Of a DNA stretch of 64,000 bases, positions 1,768-8,228 are shown piece after piece. The translations under genes were made by a program, and so were the position numbers. Source of the stretch: Polyangiaceae bacterium (GTDB taxonomy: Bacteria > Myxococcota_A > Polyangia > Polyangiales > Polyangiaceae); assembly GCA_033763455.1 (NCBI GenBank), contig JANRKO010000006.1:64001-128000 (forward strand), read 5' to 3'. The notes below the pieces were generated by a model. The model saw nothing but the letters and a program-made list of their open reading frames with translations. It was not told the origin of the DNA and made no database searches. Within the stretch, counting starts at the first letter, position 1; the number at the start of each line of letters is the position of its first letter.

Positions 1768-4700
1768 CTATCCGTTCTGGACGGCCCTGGCTTTGCGATA
1801 GCGGGCGCAACGCCGTCGCTCGCGCGAGCGCGCGAGGCCCATCCCCGCAGTCAGCAGCAACAGCATGAAACCTAAATTGCCACCCGAGGACGGGCCGGAA
1901 GGCAATGCGCAAGCGGTGCGCTCGGGACCCACGTCTTGTTTCGCGCGCTCGTTAACGGCGGCGGGAGAAGAAGGTGGATCGCTGTTGCCTCCCGGGAGTG
2001 TCGCCACGTGCTCGGTCGAGCTCGGGTAGATCATCCGGCTCCCAGGTAACTCCCATTCAGGAGTCGCCGAGAATAGCCCGCGCACCGGACGCCTGGTTGA
2101 CGTTGACGAAGGCGCCGGAGATGGCGGCTCGGATGAGGTCGGGACGGGCGGGGGAACCAGGACGCCCGGTGGAGGGTCGTTCGCTGGGGCTAGGGCTGCT
2201 GCTCGGGTCTGCGCGACCTGGGGCAGGGCTAGTCTGAGCGACGGATCGCCCAACAGCGCCATCATGCGTTCGGTGTCGGACGGGGCTACCTGGCGCTTCA
2301 CCGCCACCACGAGCTCGCCCAACGTCCGGATCCTGCCCGAGCTCCACTCTGAGATAAAAGTTTGATAGAGCAGCCCGAGATCATCGGACTGCGCCATTGC
2401 GGGAGGCGCCCACACGCTCACGGCGACACCATGGGGTGCGCGCAGCAACCCCTCCGCCAGGCTTTCCCCGTACACATCGTGAAAGAAGCCATTCAAGCAG
2501 GTGAGGAGCGTGAAGACGGAAGGCGGTCCGGTGCGAGATAAGCTCACGGCGTCGCTAGTTGCGAACGCACTGCCGTTACCCCACACCTGGGTCGAACCGT
2601 GCCCAATATACGTTACGAGACGGCTGCTCGGTTCGGTCAGAGATCCCAACAGCTCCTGCTTGGGTGTCATCGGGGTGAGTGCTTGTTCGCGCACCGAAAG
2701 CGGTTCGCCTTGCAACGCATCTTGGCCGATTTTTGCTACGTCGATCAGCGCATCTTCACCCGCTACCAAGAGTACATCAAGCGGCCAGTCAGGCGGAGCC
2801 ACTGAGTAGCGGACAAGCTTCTCGATCACGATCCCGAGCTCTTCGGGTGTGCGTACCGGTAGGCGGCCCACGGCAAGCTCTGGACGACCGTCTTCGTTGA
2901 GGTCAGCATAGTAGTCGTCGTAAGCAGTCTCGAAGGCAGGCGTGTTGAGTGTGGGCACGGGCACAAAATCAGCGACGTTTTTGCCGAGGTAGTTGTGGGG
3001 ATCGAAGCTCCCATCTCCCACCAAGAGCAGATATTTCGCGGGCCTTCCCTGGGCCGCTAGCCAGCGCAGGCTTTCCCGGATCGCCTCCGGATCTTTCCGC
3101 CCGCGACCAAACTCATCGTAAATCGCCTCGACGTCGTCGACGACAACCCGCAAGCCTTCGCTCTCGCGAAGTCGCACGAGCGGGCCAAGGCGTTCCAAGA
3201 AGCTCCCGTGACTCAGGATCACGAGGTCGGCCGGGCCGGCCGCTCTGAGTGCCGAAGACTGGTAACGCTTCAATGATGCAGGCGGCGTGACGGCGTCCTC
3301 GGTGAAGGCAAAGAGATCGCGCGTACCCGAACCCGGAATTGCCACCTTGCCGCTGAGATCGTCGGGTGGGCCGAACTCCAGTACCGAAAGCTCAGTGGGA
3401 ACTGCACTGTTGGTCAGATCGAGCACACGAATACCAGGCTGAGCAAAGCCACTCAGGCTCACATTGTCCCCGCCCAACGCCGTGAAGCGCAGTTGACCGT
3501 TCAGTGCCCTGTACGCCCGCTGATAGAAGACCCGCGCGTTCACGATGGCGGAATAGTCGTAGTCGCCCGCCGTGCCAGTCAGGGTTAGTGTGTTGTCGGA
3601 ATAGATTTCAGGGAGTGCGCTTTCAAACGTCGCTTGCTCTCGATTGGCGAAGCTCACGGAACCGAGGTGGATGCCGTCCCAGGCGACATCCACCTGATGG
3701 GGCAGAAGGCTTGTACCTTGCAGGTTTACCTGTAGGCGCGGCACCACAGCACCCAGGGGGTCCGGGGTAGGAACCGGCACCGTGAGCCCCGAGGGTCGGA
3801 TGAGAGGGCCCATGAAGTTATCCCCCGGGCCATTGTTGAGGGCTGCGAGGTAAAATTTCTTCTCCGCATACTCAGAGGAGGTTGGAAAGCCAGACGGGCC
3901 AAGAGCACTCATCGCAGGCGGGGCCGCGCCCGAGGTCAGCACATCTCTCCCCCGTGGCCCCTCCCAGCTCACTAGGTAGACGCCTTCGTTCGCGTAGATC
4001 CCTGGCTCACCCAACCCCCAAAACTCCAGCGTATCCTCGGCGTCGAACGTGCCGTCAGCTCCATCCTCAATGGAGCGAGCCAACTCGGCTCCATCCTTCA
4101 GCACTGCGACTCGATTCGACGCAACTCCAAGAGGGAATCCTTCGAGCGCCAACGCCGCTCCTGTCACGCGCTGCCAGCCATTCTTCGACACACCCACCTT
4201 GATCAGTGCTGGCAGCGATTCAGGTGTGAACTCTAGTGATCGGGCCACCTCTGCGAAATCTGACTCCGCCACCAACGCTTGCGCTTTCGCATGGTTCTCT
4301 CCGCCCAGTTTGTCTTCCTGTTGTGCAGACCACGCACTCAACAGGCCAGCGTCAGCGTCCGACGGTGGCGCAGGTGCAAAGGGACCGTGCCGCGTCGCTT
4401 TGCCATAAGCATCCACGTCCTCCACAAAGTAGCGCACCGGTCCCGCGCCCCAGCCGTGATGGTCCAGCCAGAAATAGGGGGAGCCGCCATTGCCATCGAG
4501 CATCGCTCGCAAGAGCGACCCTCCCACCAAATCCTGAGTGACCTGCGAAAATACGCCACCCTGCTCGCGCACCACGTGAAACCCGAGGTTGTCGCGCTCC
4601 AGGCCCGTTTGCCAACCCAGCAACACTTGCCCATTTGGCAGCGCTATGGCGTGTGCCCCGAGGAAATCTACCGCAAATTCTCCGACGGTAACGGCGTCTT

Positions 4701-5871
4701 CCGCTCCCACGGTGTAGAAGGTGCTGGGGGAATTCTGGTTGTTGTAAACGGCCTTGAAGTAGCTGGCGCTTCGGGCGACGGTGGAGAGGCGCACCTCGTC
4801 CATCGTGGCAGCCAAGTAGCTCGTGCCTGTGCTCGTGAGGCGCCCCAAGGTAACCGGGGTTGTCGTGGTGTTGAGCGTGCCCGTCTTGGCGTAGGTGCAG
4901 CCAGAGCCACCAGGGGCGGCGCCATTGATGTATACGATGACGTTGGCACCGTCGTAGCTGAAGGCGATATGGCTCCACTCAGAAAAGATGGAAGCGTCGT
5001 AACACTTCTGCGCCGTCCCCGCGACGCCCCCGGTGGCGACGACCGTCTGCACGTAGGCGGGGGGCTCGGGGGAAGGGTCCGGAACATGCCCGAGTGCGAA
5101 CACATAGTTCGTGCTGCTCACTGTATTGGTACTACTTTTTCCAACCAGCGTCTGGAAGGCGAGGCCGTCGTCCGTGTTCAGGATCCACCCCTCCGCGCTG
5201 AACGCACTGACTCCTGACAGGAAATCCGCCGTGCTGACTCCGTCGTCCCCATCCATGAGGAGCCCCTTGGTGACCTGACTGGTAACGCTCTGCGCGGCGG
5301 TCATGCTCCCGGAAGTGGTGCCATCGCGTGCGTTGCTGGTGCTGTCGTCCATCTGAGGCGCGGTTCCGTTGGGGGCCTCTTCGAGGTGCCAAACCGCTGC
5401 GTAGTCCTTCCAAACGTCCGTCTTCCTCTGCGTGGAAGACGTGATGCTGGAGTCCCCGTAGTAGATGTAAAACACCGTATTGCTGGCCGCAGAATAGGCG
5501 TTCACGCTCGGGAGCCGCACGAATGCCACGATTTTCCCCGTCGTCGACGTGTAGCTGATGAGCTCATGGCTCAAAGTACAGGAGGCGGGGCCACCGCAAG
5601 TTGTGGTGTCGTTAGCTCGAAAGACAATGTCGTGGCCTGAGCTGCTCGTCACGTCGCCACCGCTCCCGGTGACCCTCAGATCGGTATCCGTAAAACTCAC
5701 AAACACCGCAAAGTCGGTGATGGTGGTCGTGCCAGCGAGACCTACCTTAGTTCTATCCACCGTGATCGACTGCCGGTACCCGAACGCGGCCTCGGCCGTG
5801 CCCGCCCAAAGGAGCAACAGACAACCTAAAATGGTGGAACAAACTGCTCTCAGGGCTTGGGTAGGAGGCAT
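1768..5871 (-). CDS. Cell-surface C25 (gingipain-family) cysteine protease with N-terminal DUF2341 and LamG-like domains and a MYXO-CTERM-type C-terminal sorting signal
   Basis: Signal peptide from M at 5871. C25 motifs KYLLLVGD, LAVGRLP, catalytic His (TYIGHGS) and Cys (LLTCLNG). Pro-rich linker, then ACAL...hydrophobic helix...RSRERRR tail. Confidence 0.88.
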   Translation of the reverse strand: MPPTQALRAVCSTILGCLLLLWAGTAEAAFGYRQSITVDRTKVGLAGTTTITDFAVFVSFTDTDLRVTGSGGDVTSSSGHDIVFRANDTTTCGGPASCTLSHELISYTSTTGKIVAFVRLPSVNAYSAASNTVFYIYYGDSSITSSTQRKTDVWKDYAAVWHLEEAPNGTAPQMDDSTSNARDGTTSGSMTAAQSVTSQVTKGLLMDGDDGVSTADFLSGVSAFSAEGWILNTDDGLAFQTLVGKSSTNTVSSTNYVFALGHVPDPSPEPPAYVQTVVATGGVAGTAQKCYDASIFSEWSHIAFSYDGANVIVYINGAAPGGSGCTYAKTGTLNTTTTPVTLGRLTSTGTSYLAATMDEVRLSTVARSASYFKAVYNNQNSPSTFYTVGAEDAVTVGEFAVDFLGAHAIALPNGQVLLGWQTGLERDNLGFHVVREQGGVFSQVTQDLVGGSLLRAMLDGNGGSPYFWLDHHGWGAGPVRYFVEDVDAYGKATRHGPFAPAPPSDADAGLLSAWSAQQEDKLGGENHAKAQALVAESDFAEVARSLEFTPESLPALIKVGVSKNGWQRVTGAALALEGFPLGVASNRVAVLKDGAELARSIEDGADGTFDAEDTLEFWGLGEPGIYANEGVYLVSWEGPRGRDVLTSGAAPPAMSALGPSGFPTSSEYAEKKFYLAALNNGPGDNFMGPLIRPSGLTVPVPTPDPLGAVVPRLQVNLQGTSLLPHQVDVAWDGIHLGSVSFANREQATFESALPEIYSDNTLTLTGTAGDYDYSAIVNARVFYQRAYRALNGQLRFTALGGDNVSLSGFAQPGIRVLDLTNSAVPTELSVLEFGPPDDLSGKVAIPGSGTRDLFAFTEDAVTPPASLKRYQSSALRAAGPADLVILSHGSFLERLGPLVRLRESEGLRVVVDDVEAIYDEFGRGRKDPEAIRESLRWLAAQGRPAKYLLLVGDGSFDPHNYLGKNVADFVPVPTLNTPAFETAYDDYYADLNEDGRPELAVGRLPVRTPEELGIVIEKLVRYSVAPPDWPLDVLLVAGEDALIDVAKIGQDALQGEPLSVREQALTPMTPKQELLGSLTEPSSRLVTYIGHGSTQVWGNGSAFATSDAVSLSRTGPPSVFTLLTCLNGFFHDVYGESLAEGLLRAPHGVAVSVWAPPAMAQSDDLGLLYQTFISEWSSGRIRTLGELVVAVKRQVAPSDTERMMALLGDPSLRLALPQVAQTRAAALAPANDPPPGVLVPPPVPTSSEPPSPAPSSTSTRRPVRGLFSATPEWELPGSRMIYPSSTEHVATLPGGNSDPPSSPAAVNERAKQDVGPERTACALPSGPSSGGNLGFMLLLLTAGMGLARSRERRRCARYRKARAVQNG

Positions 5872-6335
5872 GGTCACAAACCGGGCGGTTGCACAGCAGG
5901 GGTAACCTCGGGGTAAACGGCACATCCGACCAGTTCCTTTAGTAAGTCCGAAACGTCGAGACGCCGACCTACACGCACTCCCCCCAAGAAACCGGCTTTT
6001 TCAGCTCCGCAGAGTCGTTGGTCCTTCGGCAGCCGTAGGCCGCCAGAGCATCCGTTGCCAAGCTCTCACCCGACGCATGCGTCCGTTGCTCTGAGTCAGT
6101 CGTCGACCTGTGCCCGAACGTGCCTGTTCAGAATCGCCACGACGAGTGTTCAGGACGCTCCGAACGCCGCTGGCTTGCGCGAAGAGCCGTTTGGCGCACA
6201 CACCCCCATTCTGGCAGGAGCGCTGCGTTACATTCTAGCCGCTATTCCCACCCGCATACCGTCGCGTATACGGGCGATTCGTTTCAAACCGGTCTAGAAG
6301 GTGGGGTACCGGTTGAGGTAAGAAGCGAGTACTTC

Positions 6336-7691
6336 ATGACAGAGAGCAGCCCTTCCACACTCAAGCAACCCACGGCGCGAGGCGTTGAGCTCACGTCTGA
6401 GGTCGCGCGTGAAGGATTGCTGCACGCCAAACGCCCCACGAGCCTGCCGCTTGCCCCCAAGGCTCCTGTTGCTCGTCGCAAACTGCCGCTTGCCGCTGAA
6501 TCGCGTCCTATCGATCGCGCGTGGCGGCCCATTTATGCTGTTTGGGAAATCACTCTCAAGTGCGACCTCGCGTGCCGGCACTGTGGCTCCCGCGCTGGCA
6601 AAGCGCGGAGCGATGAACTCAGCACCGAACAATGCTTCGATCTCATCGAGCAGATGGCGGAGCTCGGCGTGAAGGAAGTGACCATCATTGGGGGCGAAGC
6701 TTATCTGCGTCCGGATTGGCTCGATATCGTACGCAAGATCCGTGATGTTGGTATGCAATCCACAATGACCACGGGCGGCCGCGGGATAACGCCGGAACAC
6801 GCGCGCGCCGCGCGTGAAGCTGGGCTCATGAGTGTCAGCGTTTCGGTAGATGGCCTGGAAGAAACTCACGATCGCTTACGGGGTGTAACGGGGTCCTTTC
6901 AGTCGGCGATGGCCGCTATTGCCGCTTTTCGAGCCGCGGGAGTGCCGGTTTCCGCAAATACTCAGATCAATCGCCTGAGTGCTCGGGAGATGCCCGAGCT
7001 CTTGGAGAGGCTCATTGTGGCTGGCATTCATGGTTGGCAGCTACAGCTTACGGTTCCCATGGGCCGTGCCGTCGATGAGCCGGACGTGCTGCTCCAGCCG
7101 TATGATTTGCTGAAAATCTTTCCGATGGTGGCTGAGCTCAAACGGCGCACGGTTGAAGCTCGTGTAACCCTCTGGCCGGGCAATAATCTCGGCTATTTTG
7201 GCCCGTACGAGTCACTGCTGCGCGGCTCGATGCCTGAGGGCCACCTGGGATCCTGTGGAGCCGGTCGCGGTACGTTGGGTATCGAAGCCGATGGCACCAT
7301 CAAAGGTTGCCCTTCCTTGCCAACCCGTGAATTTGCCGGCGGCAACGTGCTCGACAACCGACTCGTAGACATCTGGGAGCGAGCCGAAGCGTTGCGTTTT
7401 ACAAGGGATCGCCAGGTGCCGCGTGATCTTTGGGGCTATTGCGCCACCTGCTACTACGCCGATACCTGCCGTGCCGGCTGCACCTGGACGGGCTTTACCG
7501 CCCTTGGTAAGGCCGGGAACAATCCGTATTGCCATCACCGCGCGTTAGAGTTCGAGCGAATCGGCAAGCGCGAGCGGCTCGTGCTCGCCTCGCCTGCCCC
7601 CGGTGAGCCCTTTGATCATGGTCGCTTCGATCTTATCGAGGAAGACATTCCTTCAAGCTCTTTATCCCTAGAAACAGCAAGCCCCTCCTAA
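6336..7691 (+). CDS. Radical SAM/SPASM peptide maturase, PlpX/splicease-like (YG/GDL-peptide-associated family)
   Basis: AVWEITLKCDLACRHCGSRAG (CxxxCxxC) and GGEAYLRPDW. SPASM segment CGAG...GIEADGTIKGCPSL...CATC....C..GC.W...GNNPYCHHR. Start set at MTESS (6336); the ORF track extends further upstream. Confidence 0.85.
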   Translation: MTESSPSTLKQPTARGVELTSEVAREGLLHAKRPTSLPLAPKAPVARRKLPLAAESRPIDRAWRPIYAVWEITLKCDLACRHCGSRAGKARSDELSTEQCFDLIEQMAELGVKEVTIIGGEAYLRPDWLDIVRKIRDVGMQSTMTTGGRGITPEHARAAREAGLMSVSVSVDGLEETHDRLRGVTGSFQSAMAAIAAFRAAGVPVSANTQINRLSAREMPELLERLIVAGIHGWQLQLTVPMGRAVDEPDVLLQPYDLLKIFPMVAELKRRTVEARVTLWPGNNLGYFGPYESLLRGSMPEGHLGSCGAGRGTLGIEADGTIKGCPSLPTREFAGGNVLDNRLVDIWERAEALRFTRDRQVPRDLWGYCATCYYADTCRAGCTWTGFTALGKAGNNPYCHHRALEFERIGKRERLVLASPAPGEPFDHGRFDLIEEDIPSSSLSLETASPS

Positions 7692-7709
7692 ACCAAAAGG
7701 AAACTTAAA

Positions 7710-8228
7710 ATGGCTCAACACCTCGTTCCATGCCCCTCCTGCTCACGCCATGTGCGGACCGATGAAGGAAGCTGCCCGTTTTGTGCGACAGCGCTCAACC
7801 TTTCAGGCGTTCCAACCCGCATGATGCCCGCGCGTCGCCTCGGCCGCGCCGCCCTCTTTGCCTTTGGTACGACGTTAGCAGCGGGTGCTCAGTTTGCCTG
7901 TGCCAGCGATGATGACGGCGGTGGTTCAAATACGGGTACGGGTGGCTCGGTCTCTACGGGTGGCGCGAAGGCTACTGGCGGCGCCTCCACGGGTGGCGCG
8001 AAGGCAACCGGCGGTACGGCGAGTAGCGGCGGTGCTGGCAATACGCCTGCAGCTGGGGGCACGTCTGCGGCGGGAGGAACGCCGAACATTCAGCCGCTCT
8101 ATGGTGCTCCTGCGCCGGTGGGTGGTGCGGAAGCAACAGGCGGTGCTGAGGCGGGCGGCGCGGCGGGCGAGGGCACAGGGGGCACGCCGAACCCCGTAGC
8201 GCTTTATGGTGCCGTCCCAGCGCCTTAA
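7710..8228 (+). CDS. Putative RiPP/protein precursor for the adjacent radical SAM enzyme: N-terminal CxxC-x10-CxxC, RR + hydrophobic signal, lipobox-like Cys, Gly-rich linker, two LYG cores
   Basis: Starts 18 bp after the rSAM stop, with AGGA RBS. CPSC...CPFC; RRLGRAALFAFGTTLAAGAQFAC; repeated GGTPNIQPLYGAPAP and GGTPNPVALYGAVPAP. Confidence 0.75.
   Translation: MAQHLVPCPSCSRHVRTDEGSCPFCATALNLSGVPTRMMPARRLGRAALFAFGTTLAAGAQFACASDDDGGGSNTGTGGSVSTGGAKATGGASTGGAKATGGTASSGGAGNTPAAGGTSAAGGTPNIQPLYGAPAPVGGAEATGGAEAGGAAGEGTGGTPNPVALYGAVPAP

Follow-up and report, generated by a model that had tools for sequence, protein, structure and literature searches.

A tyramine-splicease-like radical SAM/SPASM enzyme beside a zinc-finger-headed, lipoprotein-like YG precursor in a Polyangiaceae genome

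Described spliceases and the Polyangiaceae enzyme

Type I spliceotides are represented by the PlpX/PlpY/PlpA and PcpXYA systems of Pleurocapsa, with enzymes of the TIGR04103 type (Morinaka 2018, as related in PMC11414181 and PMC11002830), and double-glycine leaders are ascribed to splicease types II, III and V (PMC11414181 supplement). In total, 27 spliceases have been characterised and 939 systems predicted (PMC10533398), with 189 genera given in a further account (PMC10849128). Here, a gene pair is described from a window of 64,000 nucleotides (nt) of a Polyangiaceae bacterium genome (GCA_033763455.1, contig JANRKO010000006.1, positions 64,001 to 128,000), in which a radical S-adenosylmethionine (SAM)/SPASM enzyme of the tyramine-splicease clade is followed by a 172-amino acid (aa) open reading frame (ORF). 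Because of family-wide linkage and an enrichment of Tyr-Gly (YG) sites, this ORF is almost certainly the cognate substrate of the enzyme, and the zinc finger at its N-terminus is predicted to serve as the docking element.

The enzyme gene starts with an ATG at 6336 and encodes a 451-aa frame with its stop at 7689-7691 (+ strand), the start being uncertain in that the ORF listing reaches upstream to a GTG at 6120. The two genes have the same orientation, with 18 nt between the enzyme stop and the 172-aa ORF. Re-reading of the sequence confirmed the anatomy given in an earlier note on this DNA: the 172-aa protein carries C8xxC11-x10-C22xxC25, R42R43, a hydrophobic stretch to F62-A63-C64, a linker and two Leu-Tyr-Gly (LYG) sites, which hold its only two Tyr residues.

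Pfam analysis of the 451-aa enzyme revealed Radical_SAM and SPASM domains, and both the CxxxCxxC motif (C76/80/83) and the seven Cys at 307-399 were 100% kept across the three enzyme groups compared. The highest NCBIfam scores were 517.7 bits for TIGR04103, which we take to be equivalent to IPR026482, and 460.5 for TIGR03913, followed by 164 for the next family. The enzyme was ~54% identical to TIGR04103-type members and ~50% to TIGR03913 enzymes, and its nearest named relatives among the matches listed were mostly from Myxococcota, many from Polyangiaceae or Polyangiales. A tree of 51 rows, to which seven cyanobacterial PlpX proxies, three DUF1843-linked enzymes and nine outgroups had been added, placed the query inside a mostly Myxococcota clade of 24 rows (support 99/95), and a clade of 42 rows (99/97) united it with the seven TIGR04103-type and the three DUF1843-linked enzymes. 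MftC, TIGR04053, TIGR04347 and TIGR04133 fell outside this larger clade, several of them as long branches. Furthermore, the query was shown to keep 93 of the 94 columns invariant among 30 reference enzymes, while eight outgroups keep 35-57. By profile score, clade and invariant residues, the splicease-type assignment of the earlier note was thus upheld, the query grouping with both PlpX-type and TIGR03913 enzymes to the exclusion of the other SPASM maturases.

Some points weigh against this classification. Both leading scores are under the curated cut-offs (725 for TIGR04103 and 591.75 for TIGR03913), such that the enzyme, judged by sequence, resembles spliceases yet belongs to neither curated family. 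PlpX, a member of IPR026482 (PMC11002830), was itself outside the tree, the reference enzymes being family members; four of the seven PlpX proxies were above the TIGR04103 cut-off, one was taken by annotation and two were unscored. As a separate result, a PDB sequence search returned no solved splicease structure, the nearest entry being SkfB (E 5e-24).

The pair shares with type I systems a radical SAM/SPASM enzyme, L/M-Y-G in a P-x-Y-G context and several sites per precursor, and differs from them in having no PlpY and no Nif11 leader, but a zinc-finger leader and a lipoprotein-like anchor. In common with binary type II systems (RhaXA, RcsXA and RasXA; PMC11414181, PMC11626197), it has no Y protein and a substrate element that would recruit or activate the enzyme; in type II this element is an α-helix in a double-glycine-cut leader, whereas the present pair would use a Cys4 finger, after which comes a probable type II signal. 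The GDL-motif peptide-associated radical SAM/SPASM maturases of TIGR03913, which have DUF1843 (PF08898) partners, share with the pair the CxxC-x10-CxxC module and Y373/Y374, except that the module is on the enzyme C-terminus there and on the substrate here. Their DUF1843 partners are ~60 aa in length, with an N-terminal Y(G) and without a leader. A looser precedent is the Bacteroidota pair TIGR04133/TIGR04134, in which a SPASM enzyme is encoded beside a predicted lipoprotein; however, that enzyme is only distantly related, with 164 bits, 48 of the 94 invariant residues and a position outside the 42-row clade, and the lipoprotein has a signal peptide of normal length and no zinc finger. A literature search found no zinc-finger or lipoprotein splicease substrate described in myxobacteria, a key 2022 survey and a mechanistic paper lying outside its scope, and the 939 predicted systems may well include myxobacterial pairs.

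Two side observations concern these partner families. In DUF1843 partners at L114:1684-2384 and L117:2276-2989, a helix comes after the N-terminal Tyr site, and in part of these partners YG is replaced by YM or YA, showing that the family includes non-YG sites. In a Parabacteroides TIGR04134 lipoprotein (L112:2174-3016), encoded next to a TIGR04133 enzyme, EYGSP is located ten residues past the lipobox Cys, possibly representing a distant parallel editing system.

The precursor family and its YG sites

A genome scan identified at least 581 relatives over 600 stretches, of which the best 80 loci were kept. A zinc-finger-headed gene was observed in 62 of these 80 loci (104 genes in all), and in 61 of the 62 it was located ≤300 bp from the enzyme gene. 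Among the 18 loci without such a gene, six are cyanobacterial with Y-like genes, one (L069) has a divergent finger missed by the pattern, and the others are truncated or unexplained. Beyond residue 45, 287 of the 320 Tyr residues in the family are followed by Gly, compared with a mean of 58 (standard deviation 7, maximum 77) in 500 within-protein shuffles, in line with the claim of the earlier note that the ORF is the cognate XYG substrate. The sites have a recurrent context: position -2 is Pro or Ala in 239 of them, and position +3 is Pro in 234. YG was likewise present in all 120 leader homologues among the database matches listed (316 of 343 Tyr), and accounted for 9% of Tyr in control lipoprotein-like ORFs. 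At E≤1e-10 the leader profile retrieved 1,867 clusters, a number that rose to 4,493 at E≤0.001. Complete precursor genes carry 0-5 sites each, with Pro, Arg, Glu and Asp among the X residues.

The two cores of the 172-aa protein share a DNA repeat (at 8073 and 8178), and both sites resemble the PlpA2-derived tag IRPLYGLP and the PcpA cores QPMYG and QAMYG (PMC10533398, PMC11414181). A double occurrence of [PA]xYG..P was obtained in 0.015% of shuffles of the protein body. Taken together with the family pattern, tyramine splicing at these sites is very probable. Two considerations temper this: both Tyr precede Gly in 9% of body shuffles, which makes that feature weak when taken alone, and the family counts are inflated by kinship, i.e. 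they are not phylogenetically independent. No name above cut-off was obtained for the precursor in Pfam, NCBIfam or Atlas, its clusters are unnamed, and family scans yielded no Nif11/NHLP leader or DUF1843 match.

Leader genes are also found away from the enzyme. Among 61 related genomes, the enzyme was present in 36 and the leader in 35 (both in 32, enzyme only in four, leader only in three, neither in 22), and several of these genomes carry 10-17 leader genes. Forty stretches around leader matches, chosen away from enzyme positions, yielded 42 leader genes, 41 of which contain YG (92 of 101 Tyr), with an enzyme gene within ~1.5 kb in a single stretch. One enzyme thus probably serves many unlinked substrates. 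The source genome holds just two leader genes, each adjoining an enzyme gene.

The second of these pairs (L081:5850-7660; G000:C91:15849-17659, minus strand) encodes an enzyme that is 54% identical to the first, lies on a long branch and has 87 of the 94 invariant residues. In its precursor, which retains the finger and the Cys of the anchor, the two Tyr are in PYV and IYR, each one base off YG; this absence of YG counts against the proposed splicing system. A public-run contig over these Tyr sites showed no differences, although the run and the source sample may be related. The non-YG sites are indicative of either decay or altered specificity.

Other unusual arrangements were also noted. Tandem duplications at L009, L010, L011, L012, L014, L016 and L070 each comprise two enzymes with two to five precursors. 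A clade of two enzymes (L059:87-611 and L116:2192-3814) has no visible zinc-finger partner; at L059, an acidic repeat protein with PLYGAP is encoded beside the enzyme; at the Tropicibacter locus no YG precursor is evident.

Zinc finger, enzyme docking and membrane anchor

The finger of the precursor was found to have a counterpart on TIGR03913-type enzymes. For each of the three DUF1843-linked enzymes, the leader profile matched the tail at the C-terminus, and none of the other 48 enzymes gave such a match. In addition, the TIGR03913 model gave weak matches to 19 of 46 leaders; the two that were inspected aligned with model positions 428-455. Alignment of the leader and TIGR03913 tail profiles (hhalign) gave a probability of 96.9 (E 1.9e-10), and a profile built from the enzyme tail only ranked the two precursors of this genome first and second of 75,050 six-frame segments. 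CxxC-x10-CxxC, with a spacing of exactly 10, was observed in all 120 best homologues of one DUF1843-linked enzyme, a set biased towards tails because its members were selected for resembling a tailed enzyme over their whole length, and in none of the 91 locus enzymes. By these sequence comparisons, the finger is a homologous module that one clade carries on its substrate and another on its enzyme, and it is therefore likely to be a movable address tag for modification. Engineered leader-to-enzyme C-terminal fusions in Rha-type systems parallel the natural TIGR03913 layout with a different module, and both PlpY and the RhaA leader, which activate their enzymes, still function when fused in this manner (PMC11414181).

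When enzyme residues 40-440 were modelled in complex with the leader alignment, the score was 0.74, compared with 0.02 for the best control. The mark applied to such models was passed by 116 of 157 solved pairs and 2 of 215 mismatched pairs; the runs agreed in at least 20% of contacts, and the predicted local distance difference test (pLDDT) value of the partner was 57-58. Confident contacts in the model place leader residues 2-3, 5-7, 11-14 and 23-24 on enzyme residues 288-293, 298-299, 373-377, 401 and 404. In the family alignment, H14 and F24 of this interface are invariant, and R13 and P23 are kept in ≥90%. On the enzyme side, all 73 myxobacterial and all 40 TIGR03913-type enzymes compared have Y373/Y374; among type I enzymes, Y373 is found in 0 of 7 and Y374 in 1 of 7, with mostly E/K-F there. 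Tail homology, the complex model and this residue pattern make it quite probable that the precursor finger is the enzyme-docking element, giving computational backing to the suggestion that the Cys4 motif is the enzyme-recognition element.

The docking assignment has its own counter-evidence. The model may have learnt the contact from fused enzymes. Two enzymes, L069 and L055, have P/F at 373/374, although the precursor of L069 bears a zinc finger; at L059, Y/Y is present but no finger is visible. The predicted leader fold (pLDDT 81.5) comprises a small finger and a helix (46-63), and the top Foldseek rows for the finger were NZF/RanBP2 folds (~1 Å over 24-27 residues), all of them weak (E 0.14 or higher). 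With regard to PlpY, a Y-like profile built from five proteins matched only the six cyanobacterial loci, its best match in this genome being at E 0.99, which agrees with the absence of PlpY reported previously; hhalign comparison of the leader helix or enzyme tail with PlpY gave a probability of 0.1. As a side observation, the leader at L043:6267-6833 resembles NF049861 (SCO2400 family) over residues 5-61 (E 2.3e-5, under cut-off), and Streptomyces may have a related head.

The helix that follows the finger ends in a Cys in 103 of 105 family precursors. At this position, Ala or Gly precedes the Cys in 99 of 103, Gly or Ser is found at +2 in 85, and the preceding 12 residues are uncharged in 97 of 103. 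In the 172-aa protein, basic R46 is followed by 17 uncharged residues up to A63-C64. The genome encodes Lgt and LspA. In a few family members the leader is joined to folded domains, either an AgmX/PglI-like C-terminal domain (37-39 bits against a cut-off of 40) or CarboxypepD_reg, consistent with an envelope location. Judged from these sequence features, lipid anchoring at Cys64 is reasonably likely. The points against it are that the strict lipobox, [LVI][ASTVIG][GAS]C, occurs in 37 of 103 family members and in 117 of 392 controls, with A-Q-F-A-C in its place in the 172-aa protein; that the anchor Cys, at about residue 62 in the family and 64 here, is distant from the normal signal-peptide position; and that helix hydrophobicity is 1.8, compared with 2.2 in the (pre-filtered) controls. 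The membrane tethering proposed earlier is therefore plausible as regards the conserved Cys, the processing enzymes and the envelope-type domains, though not as a canonical lipoprotein signal. Its twin-arginine (Tat) component was not sustained: the Tat motif, RRx[FLI][LI], was found in 0 of 103 and 1 of 118 sequences of the two sets scanned (bare RR in 15 of 103 and 34 of 118), and Tat export was rejected.

Further family members differ in what surrounds the anchor. Leader proteins with folded domains (L142:930-1964, L110:806-1492, L037:7546-8754, L043:6264-6833 and L066:4333-5052) are candidate spliced envelope proteins. In members from sister clades (L069:4504-4989, L108:987-1532 and L111:2649-3308), YG abuts the anchor Cys as C-Y-G or C-A-Y-G, and a ketoamide in proteins of this type would fall at or beside the lipid anchor. 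The L069 finger has F for H14, alongside the P/F of its enzyme.

Proposed scheme, alternatives and locus features

The scheme that we propose begins with adjacent, co-oriented genes for a splicease-clade enzyme and a substrate of a family whose Tyr residues are confined to (P/A)-X-Y-G-x-P. The finger is predicted to dock near the SPASM domain, replacing PlpY or the RhaA leader helix as recruiter or activator, with TIGR03913 enzymes having the module in cis. SAM-dependent radical splicing would then take place in the cytoplasm, with a loss of 135.07 Da per site if the chemistry of the family applies; splicing at both Leu-Tyr-Gly sites would remove tyramine and leave α-keto-β-leucine residues. 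The long n-region and mildly hydrophobic helix may permit post-translational Sec export of the spliced, disordered body, followed by Lgt/LspA processing at Cys64, which would strip the zinc-finger leader. Speculatively, ketoamides on a flexible tether could trap serine or cysteine proteases of the envelope. As a whole, from finger docking through cytoplasmic splicing, export and lipidation to ketoamide display, this scheme is favoured by a little over even chances. Protease inhibition as the role of the spliced product is put forward tentatively, at somewhat less than even chances, as an extrapolation from synthetic spliceotides (PMC9811515, PMC10849128).

The alternative that survives best differs in the fate of the anchor, which would mark a transit form only: envelope proteases would cut the linker and free short ketoamide peptides, as in a conventional ribosomally synthesised and post-translationally modified peptide pathway. 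Short repeated cores in a disordered, variable linker, with 0-5 sites per complete gene, do look like multi-core precursors, synthetic spliceotide peptides inhibit proteases, and native spliceotide end products and roles are unknown (PMC9811515). However, no conserved protease or transporter neighbour was found across 82 loci, no conserved motif for cleavage is evident around the cores, and some members have folded domains, which makes peptide release unlikely. A lipid-anchored product with several sites, as in the proposed scheme, could be looked for in the membrane proteomes of myxobacteria that can be cultured.

Less probable still, and indeed improbable, is that Cys64 stays unlipidated. 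The helix would then act either as a signal anchor that is not cleaved or as a second helix for enzyme binding, and the product, with its finger still attached, would remain in the cytoplasm or at the inner membrane. The non-canonical lipobox, late Cys and modest hydrophobicity would fit this reading, as would the helix that also follows the finger in TIGR03913 tails and the leader helix that activates RhaX (PMC11414181). Conversely, the precursor helix exceeds the tail helix in hydrophobicity (1.8 versus 0.95), and almost every member has (A/G)-C-(G/S) at the end of this helix. Helix residues are absent from the confident model contacts, which is uncertain rather than negative evidence on a second binding helix, and no homology to PlpY was detected.

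It is very unlikely that the ORF is the substrate of an enzyme with other Tyr chemistry, such as cross-link or cyclophane formation or decarboxylation. The separate Myxococcota subclade below both cut-offs and the inclusion of Pro, Arg, Glu and Asp at X leave some room for it, but nearly all invariant residues are kept, the target motif is the same YG, and splicing has reportedly been confirmed for 27 pairs from across the family (PMC10849128). Chance adjacency to an unrelated lipoprotein, for which the Gly-rich body with its 9% of shuffles and the commonness of Gly-rich lipoproteins in the genome might be cited, is contradicted by family-wide linkage and by YG enrichment over the 9% of controls, and can practically be dismissed.

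Should the proposed scheme be true, β-amino-acid editing would extend to envelope proteins rather than secreted peptides, and the zinc finger would be a new recognition or activation element alongside PlpY and the Rha helix. A broader idea, which we consider possible but somewhat short of likely, is genome-wide editing of lipoprotein backbones, in which a portable finger tag, heading a lengthened lipoprotein signal peptide, recruits and activates the splicease. Up to a dozen or more scattered genes in each genome would then give rise to lipid-anchored envelope proteins with ketoamide warheads, and the finger on the TIGR03913 C-terminus would make those enzymes naturally leader-independent spliceases. 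The two natural finger positions suggest a tag of ~30 residues with which splicing might be targeted to chosen proteins, and TIGR03913 enzymes are suggested as ready single-component tools. For specialists, the portable finger module and the scattered substrates are most worth testing.

Table. Features of the enzyme-precursor locus, in positions of the 64,000-nt window
Feature	Position	Strand	Basis
Radical SAM/SPASM enzyme, tyramine-splicease clade, 451 aa, without C-terminal zinc-finger tail	6336..7691	+	Pfam, profiles, tree
CxxxCxxC radical SAM cluster motif (C76, C80, C83)	6561..6584	+	Sequence, alignment
Enzyme residues 288-293 (FGPYES), predicted docking surface for precursor finger	7197..7214	+	Model, conservation
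SPASM region, seven invariant Cys (C307-C399)	7254..7532	+	Pfam, alignment
Enzyme residues 373-377 (YYADT), predicted docking surface	7452..7466	+	Model, alignment
AAGGA Shine-Dalgarno-like site, 8 nt ahead of precursor ATG	7697..7701	+	Sequence
Precursor/substrate gene, 172 aa, large unnamed Myxococcota family	7710..8228	+	ORF, profile searches
CxxC-x10-CxxC zinc finger, RanBP2/NZF-like fold in model, predicted enzyme-docking module, homologous to TIGR03913 tail	7731..7784	+	Profiles, model
R-A-A-x-F-x-F hydrophobic helix (46-63) to Cys64; probable type II signal/lipid-anchor site, non-canonical lipobox	7845..7901	+	Alignment, fold model
Gly/Ala/Thr/Ser low-complexity linker	7902..8072	+	Sequence
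Core 1, P-LYG-AP putative splice site, LYG 8097-8105	8073..8117	+	Sequence
Core 2, A-LYG-AVP putative splice site, LYG 8202-8210, C-terminal	8178..8225	+	Sequence

Promoter and terminator scans at the locus gave no match, and no RNA holder was listed for it, which speaks neither for nor against expression. ORF clustering across the 82 loci revealed no conserved accessory gene, returning only Ser/Thr kinases, a histidine kinase, shadow frames and neighbours from close kin. Divergently upstream of the cassette, a gene at 1768-5925 (minus strand) encodes a protein of 1,385 aa that combines a signal-like N-terminus with LamG, a Peptidase_C25 (gingipain/PorU-like) domain and a hydrophobic-plus-basic C-terminal tail. 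The earlier statement that no protease gene is adjacent thus requires correction as to this locus, although the neighbour is unconserved: related loci are without it, both same-genus loci have a different upstream gene, and the C25 peptidase was rejected as a system component. A public-run contig that spans the enzyme-precursor junction (7290-8044) showed 20 substitutions and 0 gaps, with six of the seven listed small-ORF differences at third codon positions.

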